The notes beneath the pieces were generated by a model. The model had not been told where the DNA came from. It ran no database searches and worked only from the letters and a program-made list of their open reading frames with translations. The position numbers and the translations under genes are program-made. From Pseudovirgaria hyperparasitica (lineage: Eukaryota): a stretch of DNA of 64,000 bases. Within the stretch, counting starts at the first letter, position 1. The number at the start of each line of letters is the position of its first letter. Location: NCBI GenBank assembly GCA_010093815.1, contig ML996569.1; one strand, written 5' to 3'. Shown piece by piece: positions 34,681-38,048 of the stretch.

Positions 34681-35507
34681 CGGATTCAAACGGGGGCTTT
34701 CTGGTAGCACTTGATTTAAAGAGCATGTCCGTGGACTTTTAGTCACGTCGGACCCATATGCTTGAGCTTGATGTATGCATAGTGATATTCCGTCAATACC
34801 TCTTTCGAGATGTAATATCTTGAGGGGTCTCATAATGCTGTCAACGCAGCACATACGTATGAAGTGACTGCTTGTTATGTTCTAAGCTTTCATATATGAG
34901 GGGGTGATGTTCTTATTAGTCAACTAGCATGAATGACATCGATGCAGGTCCTAGAAAGGATAATGTGGTGTCACAGGCTTCAATAGTTGTCTGCTCGCAG
35001 CAAACTCTTATCTCTTTGCGAGGAATGCCCGTGGACGAATACATCGGAGACCCCCGGCTTATCGTGGGTGGCATGTCTCAGCGAGCCCAAAAGTAACACA
35101 AAGGCTGCACAGGCTGGCAATGGAACAATGAGACGATTGTCTACGAGGGTGTATGGAGAACGGCGATAGTGATGGTTCTATGAGTCAGTGAATACTAGAT
35201 GACCAAAAGTTCGTGCCGATGAATGAGAGTGCTGGCTTCACAATTAACATTAACCTTTTGAGGAGGCTGTGCACGGTGAGTGGCGAAGGTCAGAGGAAAT
35301 GTCACTAGCCCCGTTTCTGCCTGGCGTCGCCCGCCTCTTTGCCTTCTTGCCCAGCCCTCCATTCCGACTCCTTCTCTCCTTCAACGAACCACCAACAACC
35401 ACTCTCCACTCCACTTTCTACGATCCAAGTCACCACCAGCCGCGGCTATCCCCCAGAAACCCTCAGTTCAACAACACCATCAAAGGGTTACAGCAAAACT
35501 CGAGTTT

Positions 35508-36281
35508 ATGTCAATCATCGAGAATCTCAAAGACAAGGGTAAGTGTGTTGCCCCGCTTCTGACGGCCCCTCCGATGGCTCTTCGCCGCGTCGCTTGAAGT
35601 ATTTCAGGATGCTCGCGTTACGATGCTTTCGTGCTTGGAGGCGTTACGAATCGTGTCATATATATTTGAAGTAGAGAATTGTGTACTAAGTATCCGCTCA
35701 GACCCGTTCGCCGAGGCCGACGACGACTCTGGCGAGAAGGTCCACAAGTCCCAGGACTACATTCATATTCGTATCCAGCGTAAGTTTAGCAAATCTTCCA
35801 CACAAATACCTACTGTGTATTCCTGTATATCGAGCTTGGTCAAGCTACTCGTCGCTAACGATGTCGTCTGCAGAGCGCAATGGTCGTAAGACCCTTACTA
35901 CTGTCCAAGGTTTGAACAACCAGAAATTCAACTTCGATCTGATTATCAAACACTTCAAGAAGAAGTTCGCTTGTAATGGTACTATCGTCCCGGAAAGCGT
36001 CGAAGACAAGAATGCCGAGCTAGACGCCAAAGCCGACAAGAAGTCGGACGACGAGGCCGAGAAGAAGGATCCCAAGAAGTCTGAGAAAAAAGACAAGAAG
36101 AAGAAGAGCACCCACAAAGAGGTGATTCAACTTCAAGGTGACCAGCGCAAGAACGTCTATGAGTTTCTTACCTCCAAGGACTTCTTGAACATGGACGCCA
36201 AGACTATCAAAGTAAGTCTCTTTTATAGCGACTTGCCCAGGCAACTTAATACTAACGACATCCAAGGTCCACGGTTTCTAA
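35508..36281 (+). CDS. SUI1: Translation initiation factor eIF1 (153 aa, with charged insertion)
   Basis: Exons 35508-35538, 35702-35779, 35874-36211, 36267-36281: MSIIENLK..DPFAEAD..YIHIRIQQRNGRKTLTTVQG..KKKFACNGTIV..EVIQLQGDQR..IKVHGF*. Confidence 0.95.
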
Positions 36282-36997
36282 GCAACAAATGCTCTGAGCC
36301 CCCGAAACAGCTAAAAACAGCGGCTGACTCACTCGGTACTCCGCCGATGGGCAACAGTGCATATCGGGGCACAGAAAAGAGCCAGACGCTTATGAGTTAA
36401 GGCTTGACATTCGGCCCAATCAGGGATTTCGTCTATCGTTTTCAAGCAACCATCAATAACTTTGCTTTACTTCGGTCTTTATAAGGGCTCACAGGTTATC
36501 TTTCGCGAGCAGCCGGATTCCTAAGGAGGGTACGTCCCAGGGTTTGGGGGCTCGGTGCGCAACGTAGATATACCTTGTGACTCGTAACAATATGGACATC
36601 ATGACTTTGAACCAAATTTCCAACAGCCATAAACCAAGTGAACACTCCTCGATCAATCAAGAGCTCTAACCCGTTTTATACTGTCCCACAGATCATATAA
36701 ATGAAGTATTGCAGATTTCCATCGTTTTCACAGTTTAACACGAAGAGCATCTCTCCTTTAATCAAACTCACCTCTGTTCTAAGAGTGATCATTCATGGCA
36801 TACATTTCGAAAATTGGTGCTCTAGGGAAGCTGGACAACTGCACATGTAGCACCGGCTGACTGATGATGTTGCAGGAACCGACTGCATTAAATCTAATAT
36901 CACAAGATATTGAAGTTACATAAGCAGTTAATAGCTGCTTCAATCCTACGCTCTATGCGTGACGCCTAGTTATGCAAGTCGACCTTCCAGCTTGCAC

Positions 36998-38048
36998 TTA
37001 AACCAACTTTGAGGTAACATTCGAGAACTCTCCCTTCTCCAACTTCGTCTTCCAGAAGATCGGATTAGTGTCGTTGAAGCCATGCTTGACCCAGCCATCC
37101 TCCTTGACGTGGTACAGGTTGATAAAACCACCCGAAAAAGCATCACGATGGGTAGCGGCCAGAATGCTGCGACGGCCTAGCTCCAGTGCCTCCTCCTCGG
37201 TTAGGTCATATTTGTATTCGGCGTCGAGCACACCGTAAGCAAATGTTTGACCAGAGCCAACACAAAACAGATTGCCAGAGAGACGCGTACCGTCACTGTC
37301 AATGTAATATAGTGCGGGTCCTTCTTGGGGTGTCACACCAGCGCACATAGTACCCTATAAGATGAGTGAGTCAGTATTGAACGCTAAGGTGATGAATGCT
37401 ATGGGGATTGGTCTCAGAAGTATCTTACCATGCTCAAGCCCATACCCTTGTATGAATAGACAAGGTTGGCGAGGATCTTGGAGGCTGCAGCAACCGATAT
37501 GCGACGCTTGTGACGGAGCTCGTGGAGGCGACATTGCATGCCTAGGTATGCGAGCCAGTATTGACAGTCCTATAACCCGATATCAGTCAATCTACCTCCA
37601 GACCTTAAATATAGTTTCATAACAACGTACAGCAGCACCACCAGCCATAGTTCCCAACAAACAGCTGTTGATCTCGATAACCTTCTTGACTGTCTGACTG
37701 GCTATCCAATTTCCAGCCGTTGCTCTTGAATCTGTAGCGACTATGATTCCACCCTGGAAGCGGAAGGCCAGCGTGGTGGTTCCGTGGGCAATCTTGATGG
37801 GGCAGTTCGGGTTGGAGTAGTCGTCGGTCATTGCTCGAAGCCATGATGATGACTGGAGGTGAGATATTGTTAGCTGTGGCATTACTAGCTATGTAGCTCC
37901 CCGGTGTTCTTACCTGAGCCACTGGAGGTAGTGCAAACTTCAGGGAGAGAGGAGGAGTGATTTGGGTTATGAGCTGTTGATCGTCGTCCTGCGCATAGCC
38001 CTCATTCTCGAATGCTGGCCGGCTGTACTGAGCTACTAAAGTGTCCAT
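36998..38048 (-). CDS. PRE2: 20S proteasome subunit beta-5
   Basis: Propeptide then [64 protein letters not shown]; three introns. Confidence 0.97.

Follow-up and report, generated by a model that had tools for sequence, protein, structure and literature searches.

Architecture and start context of the eIF1 gene

The window that we analysed, a stretch of 64,000 nucleotides from contig ML996569.1 of the Pseudovirgaria hyperparasitica assembly GCA_010093815.1, carries a gene for the translation initiation factor eIF1 (SUI1), the features of which are collected in Table 1. Removal of the three introns, each of which begins with GTAAGT, leaves a joined coding sequence of 462 nt that runs without an internal stop and encodes 153 residues. 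Exon 3 accommodates loop 1 (RNGRK), helix alpha1, hairpin 2 together with the insert described below, the QLQGDQR motif and helix alpha2; its in-frame translation is referred to here as P0001. Assembled contigs from two public sequencing runs, X2 (35874-36211) and X3 (35874-36122), cover this exon with no gap and no mismatch.

Table 1. Features of the eIF1 locus, with positions counted from the first letter of the window.
Feature	Position	Strand	Basis or remark
eIF1/SUI1 gene	35508-36281	+	four exons, three introns
5' UTR (minimum extent)	35414..35507	+	start of the 872-nt X2 transcript contig
Exon 1	35508..35538	+	end set by the RNA joint 35537/35701 (cut +1)
Intron 1, 163 nt, GTAAGT..CAG	35539..35701	+	absent from X2 and X3 contigs
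Exon 2 (N-terminal tail and strand beta1, ...YIHIRIQ)	35702..35779	+	sequence and RNA contigs
Intron 2, 94 nt, GTAAGT..CAG, CTRAY at -19	35780..35873	+	absent from X2 and X3
Exon 3, 338 nt	35874..36211	+	X2 contig over the whole span; X3 contig over 35874-36122
Loop-2 codons (43), residues 76-118 of 153 aa	35990..36118	+	translation and alignment to human eIF1
108-nt segment (36 codons, VEDK...KKKK), intron in the public model	35999..36106	+	RNA retains the segment
Intron 3, 55 nt, GTAAGT..AAG, CTRAY at -15	36212..36266	+	absent from X2 and X3
Exon 4, coding part, VHGF and stop	36267..36281	+	sequence
3' UTR (minimum extent)	36282..36597	+	end of the X2 contig; X3 1748-nt contig extends beyond 36600

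The start codon lies in a poor context (gagtttATGt, with T at both -3 and +4), and no ATG precedes it between 35414 and 35507. According to the available part of Wallace et al. 2020 (PMC7049704), a poor AUG context is a reported hallmark of eIF1 autoregulation, and because this context is the reported basis of that autoregulation, its presence here fits a factor that still discriminates between start contexts. The second AUG of the spliced mRNA (35880) lies in another frame, with G at both -3 and +4, and opens an 11-codon ORF (35880-35915); it may be a simple consequence of the RNGRK codons AAT GGT.

At the other end of the gene, the 1748-nt X3 contig spans the gene end and continues for ~1350 nt past 36600 (to ~37950), extending towards a convergent minus-strand ORF at 36998-37348 that presumably encodes a protein resembling a proteasome beta subunit. 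The eIF1 transcript and the convergent minus-strand transcript probably overlap at their 3' ends. An antisense ORF of 90 aa (35845-36117) was dismissed as a mere consequence of the purine richness of the sense strand.

The segment treated as an intron in the public model is retained in mRNA

The best database match to the gene product is the public Pseudovirgaria hyperparasitica eIF1 (P0002), a protein of 117 aa, and deletion of 35999-36106 from the 153-aa coding sequence reproduces it letter for letter. Within the segment, codon usage for lysine, aspartate and glutamate agrees with that in the remainder of the coding sequence: AAG:AAA is 11:4 in the segment and 10:4 elsewhere, GAC:GAT is 6:1 and 9:1, and GAG:GAA is 4:2 and 5:0, respectively. 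An open frame of 36 codons with a length that is a multiple of three is by itself unremarkable by chance.

The transcript contigs decide the status of the segment. The 872-nt X2 contig consists of 35414-35537, 35701-35779, 35874-36211 and 36267-36597 with no mismatches, and in X3 a 386-nt contig connects 35701-35779 with 35874-36122. All joints reported in the X2 and X3 contigs belong to the three GT..AG introns (163, 94 and 55 nt), and none lies at 35999-36106, through which both contigs run straight. Since the three GTAAGT introns alone are missing from the contigs, which continue through the segment, the main mRNA form almost certainly encodes the 153-aa protein, which would presumably accumulate as a stable product. 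X2 and X3 are two public runs of one sample and represent one independent observation, and their RNA nature is deduced from the spliced contigs rather than from the run records. Assembled contigs drop rare variants and show presence, not absence, such that a minor spliced isoform could escape them. In X3, side paths with depths of 95.5 and 4.8 against ~15,000, which is error level, survive as contigs of their own (60 nt), and none of these bridges 35998 to 36107, which weakly suggests that a spliced form joining these two positions is very rare in X3. In addition, a 202-nt contig from X1, a run of another study, covers 35875-36076 without a gap and with four differences, of which the two listed (35938 and 35974) fall at third codon positions, as counted by hand.

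These observations allow the public annotation to be weighed against the 153-aa form. Were 35999-36106 removed by the spliceosome, either as an ordinary intron, as the public model implies, or as an in-frame exitron, the main protein would have 117 aa, the form that has been deposited; the GT at its start, the AG at its end and a length divisible by three would then find an explanation, as would the near-standard loop (11 residues compared to 10) that its removal leaves behind. We nevertheless consider this very improbable, given that the segment is present in the contigs of X2 and X3 alike, both from one sample, with no joint reported, and that its features are unlike those of the three verified introns: it runs from a GTCGAA donor to AAGAAG, contains neither a GTAAGT donor nor a CTRAY branch site, and is made up of 74% purine and 6.5% T, as against 45-47% purine and 27-31% T in the introns. 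The purine-rich insert stretch holds 38 in-frame GT..AG pairs, from which the public model takes 35999-36106, and such an abundance would offer a homology-guided modeller an easy false intron, presumably by the conversion of an alignment gap into an intron. The public intron is thus most likely a modelling artefact. By turning purine-rich, in-frame coding sequence into an intron, the model has most likely left the database with a 117-aa protein that does not reflect the gene. That the insert itself arose through faulty assembly has a negligible probability, as the window sequence recurs mismatch-free in the X2 and X3 contigs and the first 78 nt of the segment are also present in the X1 contig.

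The original prediction had described an eIF1 of 153 aa on the basis of 43 in-frame, stop-free residues between CNGTIV and EVIQLQGDQR, and both the translation, exactly as quoted, and the length are confirmed by the joined exons. It had also held the segment to be free of a GT..AG signature, which the 38 in-frame pairs contradict. Two of the points on which it had proposed that its reading could fail, splicing in RNA and an assembly artefact, were both addressed by the contigs described above, and the reading withstood each of them.

The insert extends the tip of beta-hairpin 2 and is predicted to be disordered

The 43 loop residues between ...FACNGTIV and EVIQLQGDQR, PESVEDKNAELDAKADKKSDDEAEKKDPKKSEKKDKKKKSTHK, are encoded by 129 nt (35990-36118). 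Residues 1-39 of P0001 align to residues 38-75 of human eIF1 (4kzx_l) and residues 80-100 to residues 79-99, meaning that 40 residues stand in place of three, a net gain of 37. The insert proper comprises 36-37 residues and is located in loop 2, flanked on either side by a strand of beta-hairpin 2. It is rich in charge, with 65% of the 43 loop residues being charged (15 K, 7 D and 6 E), and the charges are unevenly distributed: the first 24 of the 43 residues carry a net charge of -6 and the last 19 a net charge of +8. Tandem Repeats Finder detected no tandem repeats in 35900-36200, and hence an origin of the insert by simple repeat expansion is not visible.

We modelled P0001 with AlphaFold2, using exon 3 only and an alignment of 76 sequences, which gave a mean pLDDT of 61.8 with a core of 67-85. 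The model places helices at residues 20-34 and 91-99 and strands at residues 35-38 and 83-86, so that strands flank both sides of residues 41-78, for which no secondary structure is predicted and pLDDT is <50, a value that is expected in a low-complexity loop and does not prove disorder. The insert is therefore predicted, on the strength of this model, to be a disordered polyampholyte at the tip of hairpin 2.

The remainder of the protein is a divergent but recognizable eIF1

Membership of the eIF1 family was examined with profile models and solved structures. P0001 reaches 70.3 bits with Pfam SUI1 (PF01253), for which the gathering cutoff is 25.5, and the insert divides this match in two. The best NCBIfam model by far is TIGR01160, the equivalog model for eukaryotic eIF1, the next model reaching only 53.9 bits. 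The trusted cutoff of TIGR01160, 143.9, is missed both by the insert-less P0002 (133.8 bits) and by P0001, which represents exon 3 (75.6 bits), compared to 159-166 bits for the canonical fungal eIF1s P0003, P0099, P0025 and P0020. The best solved relatives of P0002 are the human eIF1 chain (E 5e-31) and the yeast eIF1 chain (E 2e-29).

In common with canonical eIF1 from yeast (2ogh_A, also in 3j80/3j81) and human (4kzx_l), the Pseudovirgaria protein has a SUI1 domain, an N-terminal tail of the DPFA type and a C-terminus reading VHGF, and its AUG stands in a poor context. Both RNGRK (loop 1) and QLQGDQR are intact and align to yeast and human eIF1, and they occupy invariant or nearly invariant columns of the 76-sequence alignment; K56, K59, K60 and E76 of yeast eIF1 (2ogh_A) are likewise kept. 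Unlike canonical eIF1, the protein has a loop 2 that is longer by a net 37 residues, one extra residue ahead of helix alpha1 and the sub-cutoff TIGR01160 score. Rather than the short acidic loop 2 of yeast (70-KDPEMGE-76), its loop measures 47 residues, and the base of the loop is rewritten, with D71 changed to E, M74 to H and G75 to K in yeast numbering. Helix alpha1 is divergent as well, yeast K52 being replaced by D and R53 by L.

Sequence deviation is not confined to these sites. P0002 departs from the consensus at 7 of 53 columns that are ≥85% conserved in the 76-sequence alignment, and its end branch is 0.41 in length compared to a median of 0.098 in a 71-sequence tree. Judged from these comparisons, the whole of eIF1 is fast-evolving in the Pseudovirgaria lineage, beyond the loop alone. 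The low TIGR01160 score and the long branch could equally reflect relaxed constraint, a paralogue or adaptation. The earlier description of an insertion of ~37 aa in loop 2, which runs from acidic to strongly basic in an eIF1 with an intact loop 1 and a divergent helix 1, agrees with this analysis at each point.

Large loop-2 inserts are rare among eIF1 proteins

To describe loop 2 across the family we took as its measure the number of residues separating CNG from QLQGD. The survey set comprised 255 proteins, taken from the best 120 of 2059 matches and 150 of 719 matches; two of the 255 were not measurable. Excluding the query and P0002, the standard loop measure of 10 was found in 244 of 251 measurable eIF1s, in keeping with the length conservation that the original prediction had assumed for the family; the 153-aa form measures 47 and P0002 measures 11. 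Comparison with other eIF1s had also been put forward as the means to establish the taxonomic range of the insert, and seven longer loops came to light in this set: P0007 and P0010 (+59 each), P0211 (+22), P0232 (+14), P0128 (+6), P0182 (+3) and P0005.

P0005 (142 aa) was dropped as a true long-loop eIF1, being an artefact of internal duplication. It is labelled as a partial Bacillus (bacterial) protein, and P0122, the top match of the second survey listing, is a tandem eIF1 duplicate of 250 aa. Internal duplication inflates the scores of both, and both have the appearance of contamination or of artefacts of assembly or gene modelling.

The environmental proteins P0007 and P0010 (171 aa) and P0211 (180 aa), each encoded by one unbroken ORF on a 1.0-1.3 kb contig, carry charged, partly Lys/Asp/Glu-rich inserts at the same loop as the Pseudovirgaria protein, but these are unrelated to its insert in sequence and length. 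P0211 and the Pseudovirgaria eIF1 additionally have in common the extra residue and a KFN motif before helix alpha1. P0211 is a divergent eIF1 in which the N-terminal tail motif is doubled (two IENLK..DPF copies) and the C-terminus reads HGA; its 22-residue loop-2 insert is Lys/Asp/Glu-rich, and kinship with the window eIF1 lacks tree support.

We also scanned metagenomes. With P0007 as the starting point, 80 loci were recovered, of which 65 have the standard loop, four have a loop longer by three residues and 11 were not measurable; the contig that encodes P0007 was not among them. None of the 272 pattern matches obtained with P0001 encoded a relative. The loop 2 with three additional residues (SDTESKGMGE type) occurs in P0182 of Immersiella caudata and in the metagenome contigs L003, L004, L005 and L008, and this small group represents a second, modest lineage-specific change at loop 2.

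A tree was built by a quick method from 71 eIF1s chosen from 256, with 116 columns and with 40 of 68 inner forks open. P0007 and P0010 were paired with a support of 99, and at this resolution no insert-bearing lineage formed a supported group with the window eIF1. P0232, whose gain of 14 residues matches the published length of the Cryptococcus insert (a likeness of length only), stands far from the window eIF1 on this tree with its 40 of 68 open forks, and the compositions of their inserts differ. Large loop-2 inserts are rare and have probably arisen more than once. The original prediction had allowed for the insert being widespread or already described; its rarity speaks against the former, but a 14-residue loop-2 insertion is described for Cryptococcus in the accessible part of PMC7049704.

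Comparison with known eIF1 and eIF5 loops

Loop 2 of eIF1 is among the best-defined determinants of start-codon fidelity and has been probed mostly by point mutations in yeast; the primary loop-2 study is reportedly that of Thakur and Hinnebusch 2018. In the available sections of Hussain 2014 (PMC4217140), loop 2 lies near the D-stem of tRNAi, and Asp71, Glu73 and Glu76 are proposed to repel tRNAi in P-IN; the same sections do not mention Lys52, Arg53, Lys56, Lys59 or Lys60. The excerpts available from Llacer 2018 (PMC6298780) report that conversion of acidic and bulky loop-2 residues to alanine or basic residues raises UUG initiation, and, within the accessible text of PMC7049704 and PMC6298780, single substitutions in yeast loop 2 already alter UUG initiation. 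Contacts of eIF1 K52, R53 and K56 with acidic residues of the eIF3c N-terminal region are described in the part of bioRxiv 10.1101/453688 that was available, and two of these three residues (K52 and R53) are, by alignment, lost in the Pseudovirgaria eIF1.

The N-terminal domain of eIF5, which replaces eIF1 after AUG recognition, offers a further point of comparison. It has an eIF1-like fold, occupies the same 40S site and presents its loop 2 to tRNAi, and this loop, shorter and more basic than that of eIF1, favours P-IN (PMC6298780, available sections). By analogy, the basic end of the Pseudovirgaria insert could act in the same P-IN-favouring direction. The eIF5 loop 2 is, according to the same sections, shorter rather than longer; in sequence it is unrelated to the insert.

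A lengthened loop 2 has a precedent in Cryptococcus. As described in the accessible parts of Wallace et al. 2020 (PMC7049704), Cryptococcus eIF1 has 159 aa, a 14-residue loop-2 insertion that is hydrophobic and negative, three further insertions, and substitutions at the D71 and M74 sites, and the authors propose an altered eIF1-tRNAi surface tied to start-codon context use. There, too, an AUG in a poor context is reported for its mRNA, with an out-of-frame AUG in a strong context after it, and the latter is suggested to capture ribosomes leaking past the main AUG. As far as these parts allow the comparison, the Pseudovirgaria gene is alike in its lengthened loop 2, in the changes at the D71 and M74 sites and in the layout of its AUGs at 35508 and 35880. 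In contrast to the 14 residues and three more insertions of Cryptococcus, the Pseudovirgaria protein, from an ascomycete, has one insert of 36-37 residues, which is Lys/Asp/Glu-rich with a basic end instead of hydrophobic and negative, and a common origin of the two inserts has no tree support (116 columns, 40 of 68 forks open). This kind of insert is already known from Cryptococcus, and that of Pseudovirgaria is a larger, differently charged variant. A literature search, which covered the Pseudovirgaria papers at the level of their search entries, found no published description of the latter.

A possible effect of the insert on the initiator tRNA gate

The gene structure, the retention of the segment in RNA, the position and rarity of the insert, its predicted disorder and the rewritten base of the loop are observations, from which we infer all functional consequences considered here. 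On balance, we lean towards the view that Pseudovirgaria expresses a 153-aa eIF1 with a loop-2 insert that measurably changes the tRNA gate. On this view, beta-hairpin 2 has acquired a lineage-specific Lys/Asp/Glu-rich stretch at its tip, which is translated rather than spliced out. The canonical loop 2 adjoins the backbone of the initiator tRNA D-stem, where its acidic and bulky residues oppose full P-site accommodation (P-IN). Because the insert would contribute steric bulk and bring a lysine-rich arm up to the tRNAi D-stem, the energetics of the gate from P-OUT to P-IN would be altered, and this altered gate would sit in an eIF1 lacking two basic residues (K52 and R53) of the patch for the eIF3c N-terminal domain, for whose lost contacts the insert may make up. 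The direction of the change could be argued either way: the added bulk and the acidic N-side would favour stricter start-codon selection, whereas H and K at the M74 and G75 sites, together with the lysine run, would favour laxer selection by analogy with basic substitutions in yeast. A more specific proposal, which we regard as doubtful, is that the lysine-rich end of the insert serves as a tether that replaces the K52/R53 contact and changes how eIF1 is held and released, with initiation stringency differing from that of relatives. Candidate targets of such a tether would be the phosphate backbone of tRNAi or 18S rRNA, or acidic segments of eIF3c or eIF5. The original prediction had named altered start-codon stringency, an rRNA/mRNA-binding arm or NLS, and a specialised paralogue as candidate readings.

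The same anatomy could instead be neutral, the insert being a tolerated low-complexity expansion into solvent that leaves start-codon selection unchanged, possibly via compensation elsewhere in the initiation complex. We consider this possible, if clearly not the probable outcome. Charged low-complexity inserts often emerge and persist neutrally, and an insert that is so highly charged and predicted to be unstructured, in an eIF1 whose remainder is also fast-evolving, would fit this picture; the unrelated charged inserts at the same site in P0007/P0010 and in P0211 suggest that the loop tip is tolerant. Set against this are the effects on UUG initiation of single yeast loop-2 substitutions in the published excerpts, the replacement of conserved residues at the M74 and G75 positions, and the strong constraint at the site that is indicated by the standard length of nearly all measurable others. 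Quite unlikely, in our estimation, is that the gene represents a specialised or decaying paralogue while the main role falls to a canonical eIF1 encoded at another locus. Such a copy could account for the long end branch, the deviating conserved columns and the TIGR01160 score below the trusted cutoff, but the mRNA is correctly spliced, with complete mismatch-free contigs in both runs of the one sample, and the reading frame is uninterrupted, loop 1, QLQGDQR and the C-terminal VHGF all being conserved. The poor start context is also that reported for eIF1 genes in the available text, and a single protein labelled Pseudovirgaria hyperparasitica is present among the best 120 of 2059 matches.

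Implications for eIF1 evolution and gene annotation

Homology-guided gene models may conceal lineage-specific inserts in conserved proteins, and surveys of deposited proteins may consequently undercount such inserts. A natural, expressed eIF1 with a 37-residue charged loop, in an ascomycete whose relatives have standard loops, provides a test case for the steric and electrostatic gate model, and it extends the observation made in Cryptococcus that fungi vary the loop-2 surface of eIF1. Should the lysine-rich end of the insert indeed act as a tether, a rust-mycoparasitic fungus would initiate translation with a start-codon and context stringency measurably unlike that of its relatives, and the repeated appearance of charged loop-2 inserts in unrelated fungi would reflect a recurrent tuning of initiation fidelity.
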